This document shows, piece after piece, positions 50-12,128 of a stretch of 12,128 nt of DNA (positions are counted from its first letter, which is position 1; each line of letters opens with the position of its first letter). Position numbers and translations under genes: made by a program. The DNA comes from a virus. The DNA is taken from the UHGV virus genome UHGV-0067634. One strand, 5' to 3'. Below the pieces are notes generated by a model that was not told the origin of the DNA, did no database searches, and was given only the letters and a program-made list of their open reading frames with translations.

Positions 50-587
50 TCATCGATCGATTGAGGCTTGGATGATAGACTTCATGCCCTTCAGTACTTC
101 ATCCTCTATCGCTTCTCCGTCGCTCGTAATCAGCACCTTACCCTTCCGCCTGGAGAATTGTGTAAAGACGTCGCTCAGGATCAGTAGCACGTCACCAACA
201 GTTAGCTTAATAAACTGGTCAATTACGACATAGCTTTTAGACGTATCAAGGATACGGCCGCTCTCTGTCGTGCACATTTCATGATGGTTCAAGCAGTTAC
301 CAACAAAATCCTGCGCCGATGATGGAGATCCTATATCACAGCCCTCTACCGTAGTCGTAGAACATGAACAGGCGTTTCTCACCATCGTTAGGTGAGATAT
401 CTTTGAAGGTGGTGACATAGCTCTCGATCCACTTGTTGGCTTCGTGGAAAGACCAGTGCCAGTTGACATTTGCCATCTCGTTGACAAAGTCCTGCGTTAA
501 AACCGTCTTACTCCCGTCTGGTTGTGATTTGTTTGCTGCCGTAAAGCGCTTGGTATCTCGTATCTTCGTGCCATAATCATCTCCCCA
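50..587 (-). pseudogene. Frame-disrupted ORF remnant: protein-like translation in one frame over 336..587 (ends ...FMFYDYGRGL*) and in another frame over about 50..335 (ends ...KGMKSIIQASIDR*)
   Basis: Hand translation of the minus strand. The ATG at 572..574 has a GGGGAG RBS but its frame stops after 25 codons (stop 497..499). A second frame is open 336..587 with no in-frame start near its 5' end. The track ORF 50..487 begins at a TTG and its first ~50 residues look like out-of-frame junk. Family unknown. Confidence 0.3.
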
Positions 588-591
588 TTAT

Positions 592-611
592 TACTGTGTA
601 TAAACACAGCA
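592..611. promoter_or_regulatory. LexA-box-like (SOS box) palindrome TACTGTGTATAAACACAGCA
   Basis: CTGT-N8-ACAG with an AT-rich centre; 16 of 20 positions match the consensus TACTGTATATATATACAGTA as I recall it. It lies about 12 bp upstream (minus strand) of the GGGGAG RBS and ATG at 572..574, and about 87 bp upstream (plus strand) of the acyltransferase start. Confidence 0.4.
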
Positions 612-697
612 CCTACAGATATTGCTATCGATCAAGCCTTTCATGGGTGTTAAACTGCGCCCCTTAATACTTACTGCTATTTTTCTGAGTAAATATA

Positions 698-1846
698 ATG
701 ACTAACCAGTTTGCCATTACCATTGCTATATCCTGCTTCGTGATTGCGATGGTGATCTTCAGTTTGCCAGTCTTCAAATTCCTGGACGAAGAGGCTCAAC
801 CAAAGAGAACGAACAGTCTTGATGGGATGAGATTTATTCTTGCATCATTGGTAATATTTCATCACATGGACTGTTTTTATTCTTACTATACCACAGGTAA
901 ATGGGAGCCAGTTTCCTACTTTCTTTTCGCTGCCGGAAAGTATGGCGTTGCACTTTTTTTTATGACTACAGCTTACCTTTTTTGGGGCAAGGTAAGGATA
1001 AAAGATAGTGTTGATTGGGTTTCACTCTACAGAGGACGGTTTTTCAGGATTATCCCTTTAGCTGTATTCGCATCATTTGTCGCTATAATTTCATTGTTTA
1101 TTTTCACTAAGCCGTTCCCTCTGTATAACACCCCAATTTCAAATATATTTTCTTGGTTCGATGGTAGCTTATGGGATCACAAACCACCAGTAACAACGAT
1201 GCAGCGTCCAACTATAGCTTTGGCGGGTGTAACCTGGACTTTAAGATGGGAGTGGATGTTTTATTTTACTCTCCCTGCACTCTTTTTCTTTAGGAAACTT
1301 TCTTTTGAAATTTCAATAATTTTATTAGCATTTTCAATTTACCTCATGCCAAGCATAACCAAAGATGCATATCTTTGGTCATTTTTCTTCGCAGGAATGG
1401 TTTGCAGAGAGTTAAAGGAAAGAGTTTATATAACTGAGTCAAATGCAGAGTGGTTTTTATTAGCATCAATAATCCTCATCATAGTTGTCGACCCCACACT
1501 ATTTCGTGTTCCCGGAACGATATTCCTTGCCTTTATATTTTTCTCAATTTTGTCTGGAGGTAGCCTCTTTGGTTTACTCAAAACAAGAGCAGCTATTAGG
1601 CTTGGAACTATAAGTTATAGTCTATATATCACTCAAGGTTTAATTTTATTCCCTGCATACAACCTGTATATAAAAGAGTTTACGTTAAATCTTGATAGTT
1701 CATATTTTATATTCCTTTGCATGTCATACGCTGCCATTTGTTTTTTATCAGCAACAACCTATCATTTCATTGAGCTTCCTTTTATGAAAATAGGAGGTAG
1801 GAAAAGCACTAAGAAGCTAAACCAAGCCAATGTCTTAGATAAATGA
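698..1846 (+). CDS. Acyltransferase family 3 integral membrane protein, putative O-antigen O-acetyltransferase (serotype conversion)
   Basis: 382-aa ORF, hydrophobic throughout. Motif R-x3-LDGMRFILASLVIFHH resembles the acyltransferase-3 signature (R..LDGLRGIA....H) of Oac/OafA-type proteins. Sits in the slot between tailspike and phage end where P22 has gtrABC and Sf6 has oac. Visibly AT-rich versus the structural genes. The motif is preceded by a ~36-aa hydrophobic extension, so the true start is uncertain. Confidence 0.75.
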   Translation: MTNQFAITIAISCFVIAMVIFSLPVFKFLDEEAQPKRTNSLDGMRFILASLVIFHHMDCFYSYYTTGKWEPVSYFLFAAGKYGVALFFMTTAYLFWGKVRIKDSVDWVSLYRGRFFRIIPLAVFASFVAIISLFIFTKPFPLYNTPISNIFSWFDGSLWDHKPPVTTMQRPTIALAGVTWTLRWEWMFYFTLPALFFFRKLSFEISIILLAFSIYLMPSITKDAYLWSFFFAGMVCRELKERVYITESNAEWFLLASIILIIVVDPTLFRVPGTIFLAFIFFSILSGGSLFGLLKTRAAIRLGTISYSLYITQGLILFPAYNLYIKEFTLNLDSSYFIFLCMSYAAICFLSATTYHFIELPFMKIGGRKSTKKLNQANVLDK

Positions 1847-1855
1847 AATTACTTT

Positions 1856-1879
1856 CTGGGGTGCTGACATCCACCCCAG
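1856..1879. terminator. Hairpin between the convergent acyltransferase and tailspike genes (possible bidirectional terminator)
   Basis: Inverted repeat CTGGGGTG (1856..1863) / CACCCCAG (1872..1879) with an 8-nt loop, between stop codons at 1844..1846 (plus) and 1888..1890 (minus). Flanking U-tracts are weak on both strands. Confidence 0.4.
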
Positions 1880-1887
1880 CTTTGCTG

Positions 1888-3861
1888 TTAGTTAAGGACC
1901 GTCCAGTCAGAACTATTTAACCCGTGCGATTTCCACCATTTGCTTGTCCCTGGAAGCCATACCTCTTGACCAATAAATCGAGGTGTCACGTTACCAACAG
2001 GAGTGCTCATTCCGGCACTTGTAACAACATATCCATATTTTGCTGGGCCTGTTCCATTATTAAGGATTGTATCCTTTGTTATGCCTGTTGCCCCATTGTA
2101 CCATTCCAAATCACTACCGCTAGCACCGCTAATAAAGTCAGGCATAAAGTGTGAAAATGAATTATTGGCATCCACTCTGGCACCATTGTAAGCCATATAA
2201 CCGCTAGCTTGAGTATTACTCCATCTCCCTCCTTTTACACTACCAGCAGATGAAGAGAAAAATCTTGCCGCATATCTTGCAAAACCGGCTATATTTATAT
2301 TATTCAATTCATAACCAGAAAGAGACGCAATTGACATACCATCATTATTAGGAATACCTGATGCTATTTGTGGGTTTGATGCATATCCTGTTAATGTGGC
2401 TCCGTTAATATATATCCCTGTGCTTGGCCCAGTCTCTGATGTGTATATTCCAACTCCAGAACAGTTAAAAACTTGAAGATCTGTGATTCTAACATTTCTG
2501 GCATAATGAAAGCTCAAGCCTCGCTCAGCTGGTGAATAGGTCTCGCGCATAGGATATCCGACATCACGCAAGCGAACTCCGTTAATGCTAATGTTGCTCG
2601 GATTCATACCTGGTGTTACTGACTCAAAACCTTCAAATGTAATGCCATTACCAACATTGATTCCCACTACATTACTGACGTGAATATCTGAGACATACCT
2701 TTTAAATCCGATAACTCCATGGGCACAATTACGACCAACAACGTTGGTGATAATGCAATTACGCGTGCCTCCAGGCTCCCCTGCAGAACAATAAATTCCT
2801 AAATCCCGACAATTCTCTACGAGAAGACCGTCAATGACGGAATCTGTAGCGCTTGCATACATCAGGCATGAATCAGGCGCATTAACAAGTTCAACATTTT
2901 TTAGTGTGCAACGTGCTCCACCAAAAGTAAGGATATCAGCTACAGCATAAAGCTTGTTGTTTTCTTGATTACCATCAATGCGTAAATCACGTATATGAAC
3001 ATCATTAGCCCCCATGTTGTGAACAAGGTAGTAGGCCTGTGTTTTATCAACACAAATATCATCCGCAAATTTAAGCCATCCCCCAGCACCGATAAGTATT
3101 GTTTTCTCCTTGATCTGTAATCCAGTAAATATCCATGGATCTCCATCTTTATTCTTTGGAGTAATCTTTATTGCACAGTAACCAGGAACAGATCCAGAAT
3201 AATCAAGTGCTGCCTGTAGCGTCTGCTGATCTGTCATGCTACCAAACATAAAAGAACGCACATCAATACAGTCATCAACCTGTAATTCCAATTGTAGGCC
3301 ATCAGAACGGTCAACAATGACAATACCATCTGCAGTAATACCCGTATTTGGAGTTACTGAGTACTTATTATAACTCCCGGCAGAGTTTTTAACCGCCACC
3401 AAGCGTCCTTCAACAGTTGTGTTTATTGTCAGATCAGTCTGGTTATCCAACTCCATGGCAATGCCGCCAATAAGAGCGGCCCCTTCAGGCTGTGATAGTT
3501 TGTTTTTAAATGTGTCTAATGCTTGATCTGGGTCATACTTAAGAACGTCAGGAAAGTAATGCTGTTGCACCATATATGAATCATATACAGCCATACTATA
3601 ATTCTGTGTAGTAAGAAACTTACATATCTGCCCGTTGTGAACAGGGTAGCCACCAGAATTAATTATTATTGGCTGAGAAACCGGAACAGGAGTGCCATTC
3701 TCACCTTCAATATATACCTGAATTTGGTTTGAAGGTGATGTTGGATCTGTATCAGGTAATCCTATAAACATTTTGCCATTGGCTACGGCTTTAAAAGAGC
3801 GAGCCATAGTGAAGAGTTGCGATGGCATGCTTACCACAACATTGGCTGTGATGTTTGTCAT
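1888..3861 (-). CDS. Tailspike protein: P22 gp9-like N-terminal head-binding domain fused to a different beta-helix receptor-binding domain
   Basis: 657-aa ORF. The first ~110 aa (MTNITANVVVS...RSFKAVANGK...VLKYDPDQ) align by eye with the P22 tailspike head-binding domain as I recall it. The remainder is Gly/Asn/Ser/Thr/Val-rich like a right-handed beta-helix but does not resemble the P22 endorhamnosidase domain. RBS AGGA 7 nt upstream of the ATG at 3859..3861. Confidence 0.9.
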   Translation of the reverse strand: MTNITANVVVSMPSQLFTMARSFKAVANGKMFIGLPDTDPTSPSNQIQVYIEGENGTPVPVSQPIIINSGGYPVHNGQICKFLTTQNYSMAVYDSYMVQQHYFPDVLKYDPDQALDTFKNKLSQPEGAALIGGIAMELDNQTDLTINTTVEGRLVAVKNSAGSYNKYSVTPNTGITADGIVIVDRSDGLQLELQVDDCIDVRSFMFGSMTDQQTLQAALDYSGSVPGYCAIKITPKNKDGDPWIFTGLQIKEKTILIGAGGWLKFADDICVDKTQAYYLVHNMGANDVHIRDLRIDGNQENNKLYAVADILTFGGARCTLKNVELVNAPDSCLMYASATDSVIDGLLVENCRDLGIYCSAGEPGGTRNCIITNVVGRNCAHGVIGFKRYVSDIHVSNVVGINVGNGITFEGFESVTPGMNPSNISINGVRLRDVGYPMRETYSPAERGLSFHYARNVRITDLQVFNCSGVGIYTSETGPSTGIYINGATLTGYASNPQIASGIPNNDGMSIASLSGYELNNINIAGFARYAARFFSSSAGSVKGGRWSNTQASGYMAYNGARVDANNSFSHFMPDFISGASGSDLEWYNGATGITKDTILNNGTGPAKYGYVVTSAGMSTPVGNVTPRFIGQEVWLPGTSKWWKSHGLNSSDWTVLN

Positions 3862-4256
3862 ATTAATTTCCTATCTGATTATTTATATATTAAATAAATT
3901 CGGATAGCAGCAGGCGAAAGATGAAAGTGTTAAAAAATAACCTTTCATTCATTTTATAGTTAACAATATAATTGTCTCTGCTAACATATAACACGCGAGC
4001 ACGCTGATCAACCGCCATATAACATGTGTACTTAACTAACTGTTTGCAAAAGAAAAAACAGACAACGAAAAGCATTAAGAAATAAAAAAACAAAATATAA
4101 AATTACCATTCAAATAAAATCATTGCTTTTCTTATTAATATTAACAGTGATACCAACAATGTTTATTTTCAAATCAAAACCTGTTTACAATATCTGTCAT
4201 TTAATTTGCTCCAGATACAAGGAATCGCCGCGGCATGGCTACGGTGAATTTTGGGC

Positions 4257-4283
4257 ATAAAAAAACCCAGCCGAAGCTGGGTT
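4257..4283 (-). terminator. Rho-independent terminator downstream of ant
   Basis: On the minus strand: stem AACCCAGC, loop TTCG, stem GCTGGGTT, followed by a run of 7 U. It starts about 17 bp after the ant stop codon (4301..4303). Confidence 0.75.
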
Positions 4284-4300
4284 GTTGCGTTGGTTATCTG

Positions 4301-5203
4301 TCAGTAGTTATGTACTGAAGGAGGCAATTCTTTATTCTTAAGTCTCATCCATGCGGAAAGATTCGTTGGTCCGTCTGGCTCATTGATATCAACATCTCGT
4401 GTGTGATTGATTAAAACGTCTCTCGCCATTCCGATAACATACGAGAACTCATGACCATAGTCGTAGCATCTGCCGGAATAGTTCGATTGAATTTGTTTTA
4501 ATGCCGGATACAGTTCACGGAATAATGCCTGTGAACGGTTGGCATAATCCCATAACCATACAAGGCTGTTTGCTTCTTTTGCAGAAAGCTCGTTGGTTTT
4601 CTTCTCTTGTTTGCCAATGAACTCACCTTCAAGCACTACCCTGTGGATGTACTCTACGGCTTTCGGTATCTGAGATGCATCAAGCTCTTCAATACTTTCC
4701 ACATTGAAATGCTGATGAATCATTGCATAAGCTTCTGGGTACATTAGATGCTTTTTGCTGACCAGCATATTTACAGCATCACGAAGCGGAGTCCTGTCAT
4801 CAACAGATGTTTTCTTACGTGCATTTTCTGCCTTTCCCTTCGTCCAGCAGTCATGCAGCACAGTAAAGCATTCTTCCTGGTACTGAATCAGTTTATCACG
4901 GATGTCAGCACGAACTTTCTCAGGGTTGATGCTGAACAGCCATCCATTTAACTTCTTCAAAGGAAGGCAGAGTAGCTTACGAAGCTTACCATCAGCGGCA
5001 ACCATGTTCATATGAACACAGTTGAATTTGCTAATCTGCTTCATGAGTTTTGTTTGCTGCGTTGACCAGCTCATTCCAAGGTTTTCAACGATTGGCTTCA
5101 TCGCAACATATGCAACTCCGGCAGCCATGGCGGTGATAATTTGCTGACCGTTGAATGGTACGTAAGAGGTGTTCACTGCTTCTAAAATTGCTATACTATT
5201 CAT
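4301..5203 (-). CDS. ant: Antirepressor Ant (immI region)
   Basis: 300-aa ORF directly downstream of arc in the same orientation, matching P22 immI gene order. The longer track ORF (to 5269) starts at TTG; the ATG at 5201..5203 ([10 protein letters not shown]...) has a GGAG RBS and gives the expected size. Product assigned by synteny and length, not by remembered sequence. Confidence 0.8.
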
Positions 5204-5271
5204 GTTGGTTTTTCTCCACGGATTTACTGACAAACGAAGCCCTGACTGTTCCCGCAGTTGGGGCTTCAACT
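5204..5271 (+). ncRNA. sar: Possible sar antisense RNA locus (arc-ant intercistronic region); ends not determined
   Basis: In P22 a ~68-nt antisense RNA is made from the arc-ant intercistronic region and pairs with the ant RBS. Here that region is 68 bp and holds a 13-bp imperfect hairpin (5235..5266, two G-U pairs). Promoter and 3' end could not be fixed from sequence. Confidence 0.3.
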
Positions 5272-5433
5272 TTACGCGCCAATGCGCCCTTCCTTCTTAA
5301 AGCTTTCCATTACTCTCTGATAAATCTCAGAGTTAACAGACCGACCATTCTCTTCCGCCACCTTGCGTACCAAATCCAATACTTCTTTAGGCCACCGCAA
5401 ATTGAACTGCGGCATTTTGCTCATTCCTTTCAT
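5272..5433 (-). CDS. arc: Arc repressor (ribbon-helix-helix)
   Basis: 53-aa product [53 protein letters not shown] matches P22 Arc as I recall it, apart from one Lys where I remember Arg16. Start set at the ATG at 5431..5433; the track's upstream extension is not real. Confidence 0.95.
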
Positions 5434-5448
5434 GTTCACCTCATAATA

Positions 5449-5467
5449 TAGGTCCACGGTGGACCTA
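5449..5467. promoter_or_regulatory. Mnt operator (Omnt), perfect palindrome TAGGTCCACGGTGGACCTA
   Basis: 19-bp perfect palindrome containing the 17-bp P22 Mnt operator core AGGTCCACGGTGGACCT. It overlaps the predicted Pant start site. Confidence 0.85.
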
Positions 5468-5496
5468 TTGAGAATATAGTAGAGTGCTTCTATCAT
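5468..5496 (+). promoter_or_regulatory. Pmnt promoter
   Basis: On the plus strand: -35 TTGAGA (5468..5473), 17-bp spacer, -10 TATCAT (5491..5496). GGAG RBS 7 nt before the mnt ATG. Overlaps Pant back-to-back, as described for P22 immI. Confidence 0.6.
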
Positions 5497-5501
5497 GTCA
5501 A
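5473..5501 (-). promoter_or_regulatory. Pant promoter (arc-ant operon)
   Basis: On the minus strand: -35 TTGACA (5496..5501), 17-bp spacer, -10 TATATT (5473..5478). Predicted start falls inside Omnt. Confidence 0.7.
5476..5496. promoter_or_regulatory. Arc operator (Oarc), ATAGTAGAGTGCTTCTATCAT
   Basis: Exact match to the 21-bp P22 arc operator as I recall it, lying between the -35 and -10 elements of both divergent promoters. Confidence 0.9.
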
Positions 5502-5523
5502 TACACTAACTTGGAGTGATGGC

Positions 5524-5775
5524 ATGGCTAGAGATGATCCGCACTTTAACTTCCGTATGCCTATGGAAGTAAGGGAGAAATTAAAATTCAGGGCGGAGGC
5601 GAATGGGAGATCAATGAACTCCGAGTTGTTACAAATCGTCCAAGATGCTCTATCAAAACCATCGCCTGTGACTGGATATCGTGACGATGCAGAACGACTC
5701 GCTGATGAGCAGTCAGATCTTGTTAAGAAGATGGTGTTTGATACGCTGAAGGATTTGTACAAAAAAACCACCTGA
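5524..5775 (+). CDS. mnt: Mnt repressor (ribbon-helix-helix)
   Basis: 83-aa product MARDDPHFNFRMPMEVREKLKFRAEANGRSMNSELLQIVQDALSKPSPVTGYR...KKMVFDTLKDLYKKTT is near-identical to P22 Mnt as I recall it. Divergent from arc across the operator region. Confidence 0.95.
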   Translation: MARDDPHFNFRMPMEVREKLKFRAEANGRSMNSELLQIVQDALSKPSPVTGYRDDAERLADEQSDLVKKMVFDTLKDLYKKTT

Positions 5776-5874
5776 CGGTGAGTTAATTTTTGCATTTACC
5801 TGGGCCATATTGACTACTTATAAAATGAGATCAATATTTAATCGCCCAATAACGGGTGTATGTTGAGGTATATC

Positions 5875-6054
5875 ATGGCGAAAAAACCAGGTGAAAACAC
5901 AGGAAAAAACGGCGGAATATACCAAGAAGTTGGCCCACGCGGCGGTAAGAAAGACAATTTTGCCACCGTCAAGGACAACGAAAGGCTTCCACCAACAACA
6001 AAGCCAGGTCATGGCTGGGTATTGGATAAGCGAACTCCAGACAGCAAAAAGTAA
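5875..6054 (+). CDS. Small Lys/Gly-rich hypothetical protein (59 aa), in the position of P22 orf59a
   Basis: ATG at 5875 with a GAGG RBS about 8 nt upstream. Product MAKKPGENTGKNGGIYQEVGPRGGKKDNFATVKDNERLPPTTKPGHGWVLDKRTPDSKK. Same strand as mnt and followed by a terminator. Length and position match what I recall of P22 orf59a; homology not verified. Confidence 0.55.
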   Translation: MAKKPGENTGKNGGIYQEVGPRGGKKDNFATVKDNERLPPTTKPGHGWVLDKRTPDSKK

Positions 6055-6059
6055 TAATC

Positions 6060-6082
6060 AAGCCGGGTCACTCCGGCTTTTT
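6060..6082 (+). terminator. Rho-independent terminator after the 59-aa ORF
   Basis: Stem AAGCCGG, loop GTCACT, stem CCGGCTT, then a T-run ending at 6082. The hairpin overlaps the last four codons (KKPE) of the convergent minus-strand ORF 6068..6433. Confidence 0.55.
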
Positions 6083-6433
6083 GATATGTCGCTCGCAGAA
6101 CTCAACAAGCCTGCTCATTAAGTAGCAGTAAGTCTCGTTGGCTCTTCCTGGTTCAACATCAACACCTACCCTTGAGCAGATATCGAATGCCATGTGAGCG
6201 CACTCATGGGCAATAGTAGATAGTTTGCCATTGAACACGCCTATCACATGCAAAACACCATTCTCGCTACTCATTGTATGAGACGCTCCGTTGGCGTCCG
6301 AGTCATGCACGTCAACGCCAAGTTTTTGATGCAGGCGTTGCCATTCTGGAAAGTCTCTACAAAACACAATTGTACCGCTCTCAAAGAGCGGTACGAGCAT
6401 CTTTGGTACGTTTCCAATGTTAACTTTTTTCAT
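6068..6433 (-). CDS. Hypothetical protein with HExxH zinc-metallopeptidase motif (possibly ImmA/IrrE-like)
   Basis: 121-aa ORF; ATG at 6431..6433 with AGGA 4 nt upstream. Motif IAHECAHMAF, followed 14 residues later by E-PGR-AN-ETYCYLM, which resembles the HExxH...E..AN.FA..LL pattern of M78-type peptidases. A perfect TATAAT sits upstream on the minus strand (plus coordinates 6463..6468). Confidence 0.55.
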   Translation of the reverse strand: MKKVNIGNVPKMLVPLFESGTIVFCRDFPEWQRLHQKLGVDVHDSDANGASHTMSSENGVLHVIGVFNGKLSTIAHECAHMAFDICSRVGVDVEPGRANETYCYLMSRLVEFCERHIKKPE

Positions 6434-6467
6434 GGTATCCTGCGCAAAACTAAGGAGAGTTAATTAT

Positions 6468-6953
6468 ATGAAAAAATCACTGTTAATTATCCCGCTTCTG
6501 CTGGCTGGGTGCGCAAAAGTAAGCGACTATCAGGCAAGTTGCGAGCAACGCTATCCAAAGCTTAGCGATATGGCTAATTGCCTTGATGCCAGCTTGAAGA
6601 ACGACTCTCGCATGGCATCAGCACCAACACCTAAGCTGTATGTCCTTGCTGCGAAGATGCTCGGGCAAGGTGTCGATGAAGGCAAGATAAGTGACACACA
6701 GGCAAGACTTGAACTTCAGAATCTTTATGTTCAATTACAAAGCCAAGAACAAGCACAACAAATAGCACAAAGCCAAGCATTCCAGCAGGCTTTATTGAAT
6801 TATCAGGCTGTAAACACAATGCAAGCGATCGAGCAAAAAGCGCGCCAGCCTGTTATAACTCAACCTTACCCAACACGCGTTGACACATATACAAACTGCA
6901 ATTCAGGATTTGGAAACACGGTAACATGCAACAGTAGCAGTAATATCAGATAG
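6468..6953 (+). CDS. Putative lipoprotein (161 aa) with Gln-rich predicted coiled region; candidate superinfection-exclusion or moron protein
   Basis: ATG at 6468 with a strong AAGGAGAG RBS. N-terminus MKKSLLIIPLLLAGC is a lipoprotein signal peptide with lipobox LAGC, and Ala at +2 suggests outer-membrane sorting. Central Q/A/L-rich segment; two Cys pairs flank it. Occupies the gene16-proximal slot where P22 carries sieA; homology to SieA not established. Confidence 0.7.
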   Translation: MKKSLLIIPLLLAGCAKVSDYQASCEQRYPKLSDMANCLDASLKNDSRMASAPTPKLYVLAAKMLGQGVDEGKISDTQARLELQNLYVQLQSQEQAQQIAQSQAFQQALLNYQAVNTMQAIEQKARQPVITQPYPTRVDTYTNCNSGFGNTVTCNSSSNIR

Positions 6954-6966
6954 TTATATCTTATTT

Positions 6967-8814
6967 TTATTGCTGTTCTGCTGTAATTTGGCTTGAAAGT
7001 ATAGGGCGTATCGCATTTGCAGCATTATTTAGCGCTCTTTCATAGGCTGGTGTTCCTGCTTTGGTGTTTGCCAAACGTAAGAGAGCATTCCTTGCTGCTT
7101 TTGACTCATACAAGCGCATCATTGCACCGAAACCAGCCTCAAGCCCCATTGATACGCCAAGAGTCGTAGTTGCGCCAATCGTCCTTATCCTGTTGGCTTG
7201 CGATTGCCCCGTCTGAGTTACTACATTTGCGGTGTCTGATCTTGCTGTTTGCTGTAGAACTTCATGAAGAGCATCAAGTTCTTTCATGTGCTTTCCAGAA
7301 AAAATAGTGTTGTAAATTTCACCGCCTGACTGAGATTTCAGCTTATTAACTTCCGTGATGAACTTGGCTGGAGAGTCACCGGCCTTTTCCGCTATTTTGC
7401 TGACGTAAGCTGCACGCATAGCATCTTTCCCTTTATCATCCAATGCGCTCCAGATTCGTTTCACGTCAGATGGTTTTCTGCTTAATACAACAGTATTTAT
7501 AAGTTCAGGACTGGCTTCACTGCTTGCCTTGTTGAGCTTGTTAGCAATGTTTTTATTAAGCACCTTATTATAAACGTTTGCATAATCGGAATTTGCTTTA
7601 AGGTATTTTGCTGCGTCTGATGCACCGAGGTTTTTTGCAACTGCGTTACGAAGGTCTTTTGACATTGCATTCTCTACCATATTGGTAGCTGCTTTTGCCT
7701 GGTTGGGGAAGACCATAGCATCCCCCTGAACATTAGATCTAAATGCTGTTCTGTGCTGACGTAGGAGATCAAACGTAACATCCAAATCAGTTGCAGGGTT
7801 TGCTAATTCTTCACGTAGGTTACGCAAGGATGTAAGCAGGCTTTGATTGGCAGACGTCCCAAGCCGTTCCTGTCTTGCGATCGCTGTATTCAGAGCATTC
7901 ATGGTATTTGTGGTATCAACTGCGGCATTACCCATTTTATTGGTGACGTCATTGATAACAGCGCCAGCGGCATCCTTCCGTCCCCTTAACGTGGTGGTCA
8001 GAGATTTCACCACATCATCAGGGTTGTACTCACCAAAACGGTCAAAATAATTGCTTACCAGCTTACTACGCGTTGCATATTGCTCCGCTCGCTTTGAGCC
8101 TGTCCCGAGCAAAGCCCCCTCAGCATCCTGAGTAAGTCCGCGAGTGAAAGCATTTTTCGGCGGGATAACATCAGATGTCATTGGTGTCACGCCCATCGAT
8201 TCTGAGGTGGCAATTTTTTTCGCTACTTCTGGCGCGATATCGCCTTTTATAGCAGTTATTCCACGCCCTATTCCCTTTGCTGCTGCGGAAAGAACACCCT
8301 GAGCGGCAAGGTTAACTCCGGCGTTTATGGCTGCATTTTGCGCGAAATCGCCTTTCTGGTTCGCGGCTTCTGCCAGTGATCCAATAGCCATGCTTCCTGC
8401 CGTTCCAACTCCTGGAACTAAATACCCGCCAATTGTTTCTCCAGCTTGAGCGTAGGGGTCTGTCGGTCGATCGACTGGACGATAGACATCATCCAAAACC
8501 TTGGGGCCACCAAGCCCCTGACTGATTGCATTAATCAGACTTGCGCCGCCCTGTAATACGTCAAATGGTATGTTTACCAGACCACGACCAGCCTGTTCTG
8601 CAATTTGCCCTGCACTTTGACCACCAGTGAGCCAATCGCCAGCTTGTTGCATCAATGATGGTTCTTCCCGTGTTGGTGCATTATTGGCCTGATTAACTAT
8701 TTGTTGCTGAACAGCCTGACCAGCAAAATACTCATCAATGGCGGTGCCAATATCTTCGGTGCCCGTACCATCAGGAAAGGTAAATGTCTTACCGTTTGCA
8801 GTTACTTTCATCAT
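6967..8814 (-). CDS. Ejection (E) protein, P22 gp16-like
   Basis: 615-aa ORF, last gene of the 26-14-7-20-16 block. Start ATG overlaps the gp20 stop (ATGA at 8811..8814). Assigned by position, size and order in a P22-like context. Confidence 0.8.
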
Positions 8815-10217
8815 TCCACCGTAAATTGAATGCCTGATTTTGAGGTATATGATCCAACCTGATTCCGTGGTTCTCCTGAAGGTGTCGAATCTTGTGCTGG
8901 CGCTGCGTCAGTATTCATTGACATATACCGCTTAACGGCACTCCCCAATGATTCACCTTTTTTAACATCCAACCCCAATATCTGACCGCCATTACGCGAT
9001 TGTCCAGGGTTGCCATTCGCGCTCATCCACTCGGCTTTAAACTCATTAAACTGCGCGTTTCGTCGCTCAAGGTTTGCCATTGCATCAAGCCATCTTGCGA
9101 CCGTCTCAGGGTTATCCATGTCAGTTGGCGCACCCTGTCGAACGATCTCAACGTCTTTATCCGTTGCTGGGCCGGGAGGTAGGAATTTAAGAACCTGACT
9201 GTTAACAAGGGCATTTTGGCGAATGCGCAAATCACGCAATGTTGTATCGCTTCCGGTAAGTTTTGCGAACATGTTCTGTGCGTTACCGAACAAACCTGTC
9301 GTTGGTTTTTCTGCTCTGAACTGTTGAGCAAGCGCACTCATAGAATTGGCTGAGTTTGATGATGCTGTAGCATTGTTTACAGCCGTCTCGATGCCTTTTT
9401 CCATGTTTACTGACAGCTTAGGTGCTTCGCTAATCAACTGCTGAGCCTTTTCCTGCGCTTGCTGCATCTTAAACCCGAACTCTTGCTGATCCAGAGCCAA
9501 GCGTTGTGCTGCGATATTGTGCCCAGTCATTGCTGACTGATAGGAAAGGTTTTGCCCTCTCGCCTGAAGTGCTTCTCCAGCCTGATTGCTACGGATTGTC
9601 TCTGCCAGCCTGCCTCGGTCAATTTCACGACCAGCCATCTTGTCCTGAACATTGAAGTAGTCAATCGGACCGAGAGCAGCCATCCCAAGGTGATCAACAA
9701 ACTCACCAAATCCTGAAGGATTCTGCTGATACATCTGAGCAACGCTGTTAGGGTCAACACCGACGCGAGTCAGTTCCTTGGCGTTGTTTTGCAGCCATGA
9801 TTGCATTGCTTCTGGAGACGATGACGCAAGGCGTGCGCCAGCCGCTAAGGTGCCGATAGAATTACGCTGCTCTTCATCAATGAATCCCATGCCTTTACGA
9901 ACAGATTCAATCTGGTCTGGATATTGAGTAGCCAACTGACGCAAAGCACCGCGATCACCAGACGCATAAGCATTAGCGTATGCCTGCTGAAATTCTTTCT
10001 GCCGCTGAGCCTGCTTTTCCTGCTGAAAAACACCCGCAATACCTGAAAGACCTTGCAAAGCAGTCAGCCCAACATTTTTAGCGCCTGAACGCTCAATATC
10101 ATTGTTCTGCCTGATAAGCTGAAGCGTATTGCCGATGTCATTTACGTTAGGAGCGTTTGAGTTGACGCCACCGATACCAGCCAACAATCCGCCATTTGAT
10201 CCTTGCCAAGTAGCCAT
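8811..10217 (-). CDS. Ejection (E) protein, P22 gp20-like
   Basis: 468-aa ORF. AGGGG RBS 6 nt before the ATG at 10215..10217. Position and size fit gp20 between gp7 and gp16. Confidence 0.8.
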
Positions 10218-10226
10218 GATTACCCC

Positions 10227-10919
10227 TTAAAACAACGAGCCAAGCAATCCGATACCAGCGCCAATGCCAGCCCCCCACGGTGTTGATGTTCCAAGAAGGC
10301 TGGCAAGACCTGCACCGGCAATCGCACCAGACGTGCCGCCGCTAATTGCTGTCTGAAGACTTGATGGTTTATTGGCATTAGCAGCGGCAAGTGCTGCGCT
10401 TTGCTGTGCAATGCTGCTCATGTTGTTGGCGTATGTCTGCCCGGCGTTCGCCTGACCTTGCAGCGCACCAAGGCCAATGTTTGCCAGATTGTTGTAGTTG
10501 CTCATCTGGTTTGATAACCAAGACTGACCGAGAGTCGGCGCGATCGTAGCCAGTTGATTGCTTGTGGCTGTCGAACCAAGTCCTCCCGTAGCCTCCGCAG
10601 CAGCAAGACTCTGGTAACGAGCCTGACCTGCAAGGTCTTTATACTGCTGAGAGTTGTAATACTGATTAAGTGCCTGACCCTGTCCTTCTAAACTGGAAAG
10701 GTTCTGAAGCTGGTTAACATACTGCTCCGCAAGCGGCGTGAACGGAGCAAGGTTTTTCATGATTGTCTGCCACTGCTGATTTTGCAGGTCTGCGGCATAC
10801 TTCTGAGCTTCTGCTGCATACTTTGCGCTTTTATCAGAGCTGCCACCTTTCCCGCCTTTTTCAGGGCAATAAGGTTCCTCGCCGCGCAGTTTTCTGCCCA
10901 GCTTAAATGCATATAACAT
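10227..10919 (-). CDS. Ejection (E) protein, P22 gp7-like
   Basis: 230-aa ORF with AGGAG RBS. N-terminus MLYAFKLGRKLRGEE... and a Gly/Ala-rich hydrophobic C-terminal tail (…GAGIGAGIGLLGSLF) fit a membrane-inserting ejection protein. Confidence 0.8.
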   Translation of the reverse strand: MLYAFKLGRKLRGEEPYCPEKGGKGGSSDKSAKYAAEAQKYAADLQNQQWQTIMKNLAPFTPLAEQYVNQLQNLSSLEGQGQALNQYYNSQQYKDLAGQARYQSLAAAEATGGLGSTATSNQLATIAPTLGQSWLSNQMSNYNNLANIGLGALQGQANAGQTYANNMSSIAQQSAALAAANANKPSSLQTAISGGTSGAIAGAGLASLLGTSTPWGAGIGAGIGLLGSLF

Positions 10920-10921
10920 GG

Positions 10922-11377
10922 CTATCTCCTGTGATTCAGGAAGTCGATTAGTTCTTCGCGTGTGGCGCTGTAAAACGTCACGTCATCCACGCCTTTGAAG
11001 TATTTCTTGATGGTTCCTACACGCTTAAGGCCAATCATTGCGCAGTACATCTGCCCGTGGCGGAATTTGCGTGCAGCGAACGATGTGACGCACTGAACGG
11101 TGGTGTTAGTCAGAATGTATCGCCAGAACGCCAGCCCGATTTCCTTGCTGAATCCACGAACCTCTGGCAGGTACATGGCGTGGCAATCGAATGTCAGCGG
11201 CTGAATCTCCTGATAGTAAACAATGCCGCCGAACTGCCCGTGCACGTTCACCTCAAAGTAACGGCAATCAGGTTTGTAGTCGTATCCATCACCGTTGTTG
11301 CTCCCGGCAATAATGTCAGGGTAATTTCCTACTGCCTCTATCAGGTCGATGTTTCGCGTTGGTTTGAATGTAATCAT
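10922..11377 (-). CDS. P22 gp14-like virion assembly protein (assigned by position)
   Basis: 151-aa ORF between the gp26 and gp7 genes. Its start overlaps the gp26 stop (ATGA at 11375..11379). Function inferred from synteny only. Confidence 0.6.
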   Translation of the reverse strand: MITFKPTRNIDLIEAVGNYPDIIAGSNNGDGYDYKPDCRYFEVNVHGQFGGIVYYQEIQPLTFDCHAMYLPEVRGFSKEIGLAFWRYILTNTTVQCVTSFAARKFRHGQMYCAMIGLKRVGTIKKYFKGVDDVTFYSATREELIDFLNHRR

Positions 11378-12078
11378 CAGTCAATCAGCCCATGTAATCT
11401 AAGTGCTGTTTCAAGCGCCAGAATACGCTGCCGCGCCTGCTGCAAACCTGTAGCGAGAGCTGCGACTTCGGATTGTGTGTACGTAGTGCCGACCGTGTAT
11501 GACTGGTTAGCGTTGAATGAGCCAAGAAGTGGCGTACCTGTGGCTGCAGTCCATCCGGTATTTCTTGCTCCAACAACCTGAATTCCATCAACTGAATATG
11601 ATGTTTTTACATTCAGTGGTGACGCAAGAGACTGCGATTCGGTTACGGTTTTCGATACGTAATCACTCTTAATGTCAGATACATCGCTTTCTACGCCCTC
11701 CAGTCTTTTGTCAACAGTGACAAGATGCGCCTGAATATCGATAACCTCATCCAGCAAGTAATCAACATCGCTACGCAGTACGACTATCTTCCCTTCGGCG
11801 GTTGTTAACCTGACCTCAAGGAGATTTATCGCTTTTGTGTTTGCGGTGATTCTTGCATCGTGGTCATCGAGAATCACATCCTGCTCATCGTTCCTGACTT
11901 GTGCGTCATAAGCTCCCTGTCCGGCCTCGTTGGCCTTGTTAGCCACGTTACCAACATCAGTACCCTGTGCGATAACGTACAGCAGATATGACTGCGAGAA
12001 GATATTGCGTGGAAGGACTGATGTGTCGAGTCGTGTAGCCTGAATGATTACCGGCTCATTGAGATTCGAATCAGCCAT
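11377..12078 (-). CDS. Tail needle protein, P22 gp26-like
   Basis: 233-aa [21 protein letters not shown]...[14 protein letters not shown]-terminal region and length fit P22 gp26 as I recall it. AGGA RBS 7 nt upstream. Confidence 0.85.
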
Positions 12079-12128
12079 TACTCAATCCTTATCTGGCAGC
12101 CAGACAGAGTGACAGGTGACTTAGTGAT
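12078..12128 (-). CDS. 3' end of upstream tail gene (gp10-like), partial at window edge
   Basis: Only one minus-strand frame is open to the window edge (...[16 protein letters not shown]). Its TAA stop overlaps the gp26 ATG (TAATG), consistent with translational coupling. Confidence 0.4.

Follow-up and report, generated by a model that had tools for sequence, protein, structure and literature searches.

An OacB-like acyltransferase-3 gene in the gtrABC slot of a P22-like Escherichia coli prophage probably encodes an O-antigen acyltransferase

The gene at positions 698-1846 of the UHGV virus genome UHGV-0067634 probably encodes a stand-alone membrane O-acyltransferase of the OacB type, carried as lysogenic-conversion cargo by a P22-like E. 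coli prophage, which would acetylate the host O-antigen and limit superinfection. O-antigen acetylation had already been proposed in an earlier note on this DNA and, as judged from the family to which the protein belongs, it remains the best reading. All coordinates below refer to the window, that is, the whole stretch of 12,128 nucleotides that was analysed, unless another sequence is named. The features used in this study were as follows.

50..588, minus strand: decayed two-gene SOS operon, divergent from the acyltransferase-3 (AT3) gene, recognized by tblastn and PHROG matches.
592..611, no strand assigned: LexA-box-like palindrome TACTGTGTATAAACACAGCA (CTG-N10-CAG), found by pattern search 88 nt upstream of the AT3 gene.
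648..656, plus strand: candidate extended -10 element TGTTAAACT (TGnTAnACT), inferred from its alignment with TGCTACACT upstream of an Enterobacter mori AT3 gene and of gtrA in E. coli 1919D3.
698..1846, plus strand: AT3 coding sequence, 382 aa, an intact open reading frame with an ATG start, stand-alone and with no SGNH domain.
698..805, plus strand, codons 1-36: extra N-terminal transmembrane helix (aa 3-20) and short helix (aa 24-30) with a conserved F-x-F-(L/I)-D, predicted from hydropathy, an AF2 model and a homologue alignment.
821..865, plus strand: TMH1 motif D42-x-x-R45-x10-H56 (acyl-CoA-binding Arg, catalytic His), assigned from alignments and equivalent to D44/R47/H58 of OacB.
1037..1048, plus strand: TMH3 motif R114-x-x-R117, assigned from alignments and equivalent to R116/R119 of OacB and R73/R76 of Sf6 Oac.
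1856..1879, no strand assigned: G+C-rich hairpin between the AT3 and tailspike genes, found by a terminator scan (RNA fold -14.1 kcal/mol, z=-1.97).
1888..3861, minus strand: tailspike gene, encoding a P22 head-binding domain (aa 1-113; Pfam PF09008, E=2e-53) followed by a beta-helix receptor-binding domain (Beta_helix match).
4301-5269: ant, in the immI region with arc.
5204-5271: sar antisense RNA, in the immI region.
5524-5775, plus strand: mnt, in the immI region.
6967-8814, minus strand: Phage_P22_gp16-family ejection protein, in the late operon.
8811-10217, minus strand: Inj_translocase protein of 468 aa, in the late operon with the tail needle and ejection-protein genes.

A Pfam profile search matched the protein to Acyl_transf_3 (PF01757; E=4e-21; 75.8 bits against a cut-off of 31) over residues 39-350, covering profile positions 2-323 of 326. 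The earlier description of the product as an AT3 membrane protein was thereby confirmed. The protein also matched PHROG 3333, 'O-acetyltransferase' (E=4.6e-38), and no named NCBIfam model was returned. The DxxRx10H and RxxR sequences are the core motifs defined for the AT3 superfamily (PMC12423673). D42, R45, H56, R114, and R117 were invariant in an alignment of 15 sequences (A1), and in a larger alignment of 93 sequences (A4) R45, H56, R114, and R117 were again invariant, with D42 conserved in at least 90% of the sequences. An AF2 model built from 93 homologues (pLDDT 93.8, pTM 0.92) contained 11 membrane helices, consisting of a ten-helix core and one N-terminal helix. To our knowledge, no AT3 structure has been solved; a sequence search of the PDB with the protein gave no match, and the only related match in a Foldseek search of the PDB with the model was human HGSNAT, which was weak (prob 0.96, E=0.08, TM 0.36).

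The window represents the late-operon end of a P22-like prophage, in reversed orientation. The AT3 gene has the tailspike gene on one side and the attachment end on the other, is transcribed towards the former, and is separated from this convergent gene by a 41-nt spacer. On an E. coli contig with the identical sequence (L004), homology to the host (yegL, ibsA/sibA) stopped approximately 910 bp upstream of the ATG, indicating that no intact gene separates the AT3 gene from the prophage/host junction. At 6944-7091 of L004 (213 bp left of the window), this junction directly adjoins a type I toxin-antitoxin locus, ibsA/SibA; related prophages were integrated elsewhere, at argW or at ybhB (lambda attB), the latter being the site of the PK8217-type prophage described below, which is not at ibsA/sibA.

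The slot itself is known from other phages. In other E. coli P22-like prophages it was occupied by gtrABC (L003 and L034) or by a gtrA remnant (L002), and it holds oac in Sf6 (L006) and oacB in Sf101 (L005). Both flanks of the AT3 gene were homologous to those of gtr-bearing prophages. In addition, the approximately 60 nt preceding the AT3 ATG were homologous to two other leaders, that of gtrA in E. coli 1919D3 (L034) and that of an AT3 gene from Enterobacter (L008), the aligned regions being 600-697 in the window, 3410-3478 in L034, and 5940-6003 in L008. Because both the flanks and the leader match those of gtrABC prophages, the earlier statement that an AT3 gene stands in the gtrABC slot is literally correct. 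It also appears, from these alignments, that different conversion genes have been swapped behind one promoter region. At the outer edge, positions 1-98 of the window (covering the 3'-terminal part of the UmuD-like remnant and the sequence past it) were 96% identical to L003 4001-4097, just 14 nt before gtrA, and this E. coli 2017.17.01CC prophage has apparently lost by deletion both the SOS operon and the leader usual for gtr.

Three small genes with no function assigned were present between mnt and the gp16-family gene, at 5860-6054 (plus strand), 6068-6433 (minus strand), and 6468-6953 (plus strand). One of them (phrog_6067) encodes a probable lipoprotein with the signal sequence MKKSLLIIPLLLAGC and is transcribed against the late operon. 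On the P22 map sieA lies at this position, making this gene a candidate for an exclusion or conversion function.

The signals around the AT3 gene were then compared with those of gtr operons. The candidate -10 element was not detected in a scan with a strict promoter consensus, which returned no promoter, and the Shine-Dalgarno sequence of the AT3 gene is weak. Downstream, the hairpin is predicted to act as a bidirectional terminator, which we consider likely; in Sf6, an annotated terminator is found in the equivalent place between oac and the tailspike gene. We also looked for the phase-variation signature of gtr operons. GATC pairs in OxyR half-sites were not found, a single GATC (630-633) being present between the LexA box and the ATG, and about 88 nt that are present upstream of gtrA in L034 were missing before the AT3 gene. 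As the multi-GATC signature is absent upstream of the AT3 gene, phase variation of the gtr type was rejected.

The SOS operon upstream has decayed. Its first gene (approximately 336-588) is a phrog_3893 homologue, 61% identical to the protein of L034, and carries a +1 frameshift caused by an extra G in the G-run right after the ATG (588-586). The second gene (50-334) is a UmuD-like remnant (phrog_3469) with ATA (334-332) where its relatives have the ATG of 'MGFPSPA'. No gene has been called at the operon in the public assembly. In E. coli 1919D3 an intact counterpart is oriented divergently to gtrABC, and in E. kobei (L011) intact versions adjoin AT3 homologues; the same arrangement of the LexA box was present in L008, L011, L018, and L034. 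Most probably the LexA box served this divergent UmuD-like operon rather than the AT3 gene, and regulation of the latter by LexA was rejected as the main reading, because the box belongs to a divergent operon that also occurs beside gtrABC; its position upstream of the conserved -10 element disfavours such control as well.

The mechanism that we propose follows what is established for AT3 proteins (PMC9558356, PMC9833829, PMC12423673). Acetyl-CoA would enter the pore from the cytoplasm, and His56, at the periplasmic end of TMH1, would pass the acetyl group to an undecaprenyl-linked O-antigen sugar in the periplasm, before its ligation to lipid A-core. The modified O-antigen would change the serotype and would be a poorer substrate for the phage's own tailspike, which may lead to less superinfection and to fewer released virions being lost on lysogens. 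Transcription of the gene in the lysogen probably starts from the gtr-type extended -10 promoter, at a site predicted to be about 662-665, and probably stops at the hairpin that the two convergent genes share. In this scheme the substrate sugar, the modified position, and the exclusion effect are putative; identity to any characterized enzyme is only 26-29%, so that neither the target sugar nor its modified position, nor indeed the acyl group, can be read across from such an enzyme.

The receptor-binding domain of the tailspike and the genes beside other AT3 homologues were considered together. Matches of the tailspike to solved structures were confined to the head-binding domain. The receptor domain (aa 121-657, window 1888-3500) was 46% identical to that of the spike encoded at 7184-9406 of L007, whereas the N-terminal adaptors of the two proteins differ. 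It was also 66.6% identical (window 1888-3516) to one of several spikes of the lytic Agtrevirus phages MK-13 (L035 4720-7614) and ChubbyThor; both phages were isolated on Shigella boydii type 1. This match to one spike among several is a possible lead to the receptor O-antigen. The spacer between the ant terminator and the tailspike start (3873-4188, approximately 316 bp, approximately 30% GC) was absent from HK620, CUS-3, epsilon34, and the E. coli prophages whose tailspike is 93% identical. Neither clear repeats nor a convincing ORF was seen in it, and no RNA family matched. In five other, unrelated prophage contexts, listed here with the identity of the AT3 protein, a tail-fibre or tailspike gene is convergent with an AT3 homologue of 54-71% identity.

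L007, E. coli: AT3 71%; convergent 740-aa beta-helix tailspike, with a holin/endolysin cassette adjacent.
L008-L010, Enterobacter mori: AT3 70%; convergent tail-fibre gene.
L011-L014, E. kobei: AT3 54% (53-55% by other alignments); tail fibre and assembly chaperone.
L016, Escherichia sp.: AT3 60%; P2-type fibre and chaperone, with a sheath gene adjacent.
L018, Enterobacter MAG: AT3 57%; truncated lambda-J-like gene.

There were exceptions outside phages. Homologues in L017 (Enterobacter asburiae) and L019 (Enterobacter sp. ECC-219), 5995-7137, with 53-57% identity, lie between trpA and ompW with no phage genes around them, and their GC content is about 36% against a background of 52-54%. A chromosomal homologue with 33% identity was found in Cupriavidus. 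The copies between trpA and ompW imply that the clade is not strictly tied to phage receptors.

These exceptions bear on a different function, which we consider unlikely: the protein may instead act on some other glycan of the envelope (capsule or O-antigen capsule, enterobacterial common antigen, colanic acid, or periplasmic glucans), or the acyl group that it transfers may not be acetyl. The range of glycans modified by AT3 proteins is wide (PMC9558356), chromosomal relatives without phage genes exist in Enterobacter and Cupriavidus, and the tailspike receptor domain matches only uncharacterized spikes, such as the one among several in MK-13. However, the closest characterized relative and the PHROG family are both O-antigen acetyltransferases, the slot is otherwise occupied by gtrABC, oac, or oacB, and the clade repeatedly adjoins genes for receptor-binding proteins. 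Furthermore, the tailspikes of P22, Sf6, and Sf101 act on O-antigen (PMC9558356). The balance of these observations favours acetylation of the O-antigen.

The base composition of the gene had been judged AT-rich by eye and taken as a sign of horizontal acquisition. The computed GC content was 36.9% for the AT3 gene, 44.4% for the window, 47.0% for 4301-12128, and 52.7% for the host flank, which bears out the first half of that statement. The second half needed correction. The AT3 gene is not the sole AT-rich feature of the window, as the tailspike gene has 41.3% GC (GC3 31%) and the spacer between the ant and tailspike genes (3862-4300) has 31.4%. Enterobacterial AT3 homologues have 35.6-39.3% GC in every genomic context, oacB has 33.7%, and gtrC genes have 32-39%. 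Low GC throughout the clade, oacB, and gtrC is thus the mark of a class of cargo and not of a recent acquisition by this phage.

Whether the gene is still in use can be judged from its conservation. Against the homologues with 70-71% identity, pN was approximately 0.18 and pS approximately 0.8, and on these values the AT3 clade is under strong purifying selection. An identical protein, 'acyltransferase family protein [Escherichia coli]', was present in public databases on at least 24 E. coli contigs, on which the neighbours were all the same; GCA_033644825.1 is one of the assemblies with this exact protein. The gene was found in none of 5,426 complete E. coli genomes. In E. coli strains whose prophage has a 93% identical tailspike, such as PK8217 (L001), a clean 1.56-kb deletion (window 89-1647 against L001 4995-5001) has taken out the SOS remnant together with 950 nt from the start of the AT3 gene, of which only the final 199 nt are left; this deletion in relatives with so similar a tailspike shows that the AT3 gene is dispensable.

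It could be argued from this deletion, from the rarity of the gene among complete genomes, from the inactivation of the adjacent SOS operon by a frameshift and a lost start codon, and from the weak expression signals that the gene is cargo, either silent or in decay, that currently serves no function in this lysogen. We regard this as improbable, because the ORF is intact with every core motif present, the protein is identical on all of those contigs, the clade is constrained, and a gtr-type -10 element is conserved upstream. A functional O-acyltransferase is the reading that we retain.

The N-terminal extension preceding the conserved motif, which the earlier note had put at about 36 hydrophobic residues, was examined at the level of the gene and the protein. 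Its existence was borne out: the Pfam match starts at residue 39, and D42, R45, and H56 follow. Residues 3-20 are strongly hydrophobic, with a hydropathy peak of 2.66, and the AF2 model placed helices at 3-20 and 24-30, both with pLDDT 95-98, ahead of the ten-helix core. F26 and D30 were invariant within the clade. For codons 1-36, pN was 0.20-0.24 against a saturated pS of 0.83-0.85 in comparisons with the two closest homologues (L007 and L008). Homologues align from the ATG onward (MTNxFA...), and the DNA similarity ends just upstream of it. Judged from these alignments, the extension is real, translated, and constrained, and it is predicted to form a transmembrane helix, its topology being that of the model. 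The same note had called the extension atypical. This is contradicted by the homologues, since a hydrophobic helix precedes the motif in 104 of 120 of them, with the Asp near position 42, and by Sf101 OacB, which also has one; the absence of an extension from Sf6 Oac probably explains the impression.

That the extension is an annotation artefact and that translation truly starts at an internal Met (M18 or M44) was rejected as scarcely credible: the Pfam model does begin only at residue 39, Sf6 Oac has no equivalent segment, and the Shine-Dalgarno sequence before the ATG at 698 is weak, but the start codon and the residues after it align among homologues up to the point where DNA similarity falls off, F26 and D30 are invariant, codons 1-36 are constrained, the helix recurs in most homologues and is modelled at pLDDT >95, and M44 sits within the essential DxxR motif.

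The N-terminal helix could have a role in, for example, acceptor recognition or the docking of a partner protein. How stand-alone AT3 proteins complete transfer without an SGNH domain is an open question in the field (PMC9558356), and the conserved helix is a candidate answer. The pair formed by the window and L007, with AT3 proteins 71% identical, receptor domains 46% identical, and adaptors that differ, suggests that the reader of the receptor and the AT3 gene travel together. We offer, as a doubtful and tentative extension, two further ideas: that the AT3 gene and the tailspike receptor domain form a co-transferred cassette of receptor reader plus receptor editor that moves across unrelated phage types, and, separately, that the clade-specific helix with its invariant F-x-F-(L/I)-D motif lets a stand-alone AT3 protein work without an SGNH domain.

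Modification of the O-antigen by prophages alters serotype, the epitopes used in vaccines and typing, and phage susceptibility, and accounts for O-acetyl groups that are unexplained by the O-antigen gene cluster. The gene described here extends the OacB-type AT3 clade, within a known class of serotype-conversion genes, by a member from E. coli, and as such it will not surprise specialists. The clade is a recurrent cargo beside receptor-binding genes in at least six prophage contexts, which could be used to predict which O-antigens are modified.

Compared with the known systems, the protein is closest to OacB of phage Sf101, its nearest characterized relative (28.8% identity over 89% by tblastn, 26% in the alignment). 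OacB performs 3/4-O-acetylation of rhamnose III of the Shigella flexneri O-antigen, but an identity of 26-29% and the difference in host do not allow substrate orthology to be claimed. Each is a stand-alone AT3 protein of approximately 380-390 aa in which an additional N-terminal helix precedes DxxRx10H. OacB has been described as an 11-TM protein with a periplasmic N-terminus (PMC8952252), and its N-terminus aligned with the extension of the window protein. R47, H58, W71, F98, R116, R119, and S146 of OacB were found to be essential by mutagenesis (PMC8952252). Six of these seven residues are kept here, as R45, H56, W69, F95, R114, and R117, and S146 is replaced by L142 in a variable loop. The two genes also share a low GC content and a position near the phage end, convergent to the tailspike gene. 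They differ in that the integrase gene adjoins oacB in Sf101, whereas here the decayed SOS operon and then the host junction follow, and in that the host here is E. coli.

Sf6 Oac (OacA), with which the gene had been likened in the earlier note, is likewise an AT3-only O-antigen acetyltransferase; its gene fills the same slot and converges on the tailspike gene, a terminator separating the two, and the R-x-x-R and D-x-x-R-x10-H motifs of the protein align. In this respect the likeness held; as a comparator for the protein, however, Sf6 Oac is poor and Sf101 OacB is closer, because the 333-aa Sf6 enzyme lacks the N-terminal helix, does not share W69 and F95, was only 22% identical in the alignment, and gave no tblastn match at 1e-5.

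The gtrABC operons of P22 and E. coli P22-like prophages share with the AT3 gene the slot, the orientation, the homologous leader of approximately 60 nt, and the SOS-box operon upstream (L034), together with the same presumed purpose of modifying the O-antigen receptor of the phage. In contrast, gtrABC encodes three proteins that glucosylate by way of a lipid-linked sugar, whereas one acyl-CoA-dependent acyltransferase is encoded here, and the signature of several GATC sites for Dam/OxyR is absent. OafA and OafB of Salmonella transfer acetyl groups across the membrane to the O-antigen (PMC7448272, PMC9833829) and share the AT3 core motifs with the window protein. They differ in carrying a C-terminal periplasmic SGNH domain, attached through an 11th, C-terminal helix, whereas the window protein has no SGNH domain and its extra helix is N-terminal. 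By its sequence and architecture, the AT3 gene belongs to the OacB-like architectural subfamily of the AT3 family, and it is the orthologue of no characterized enzyme.
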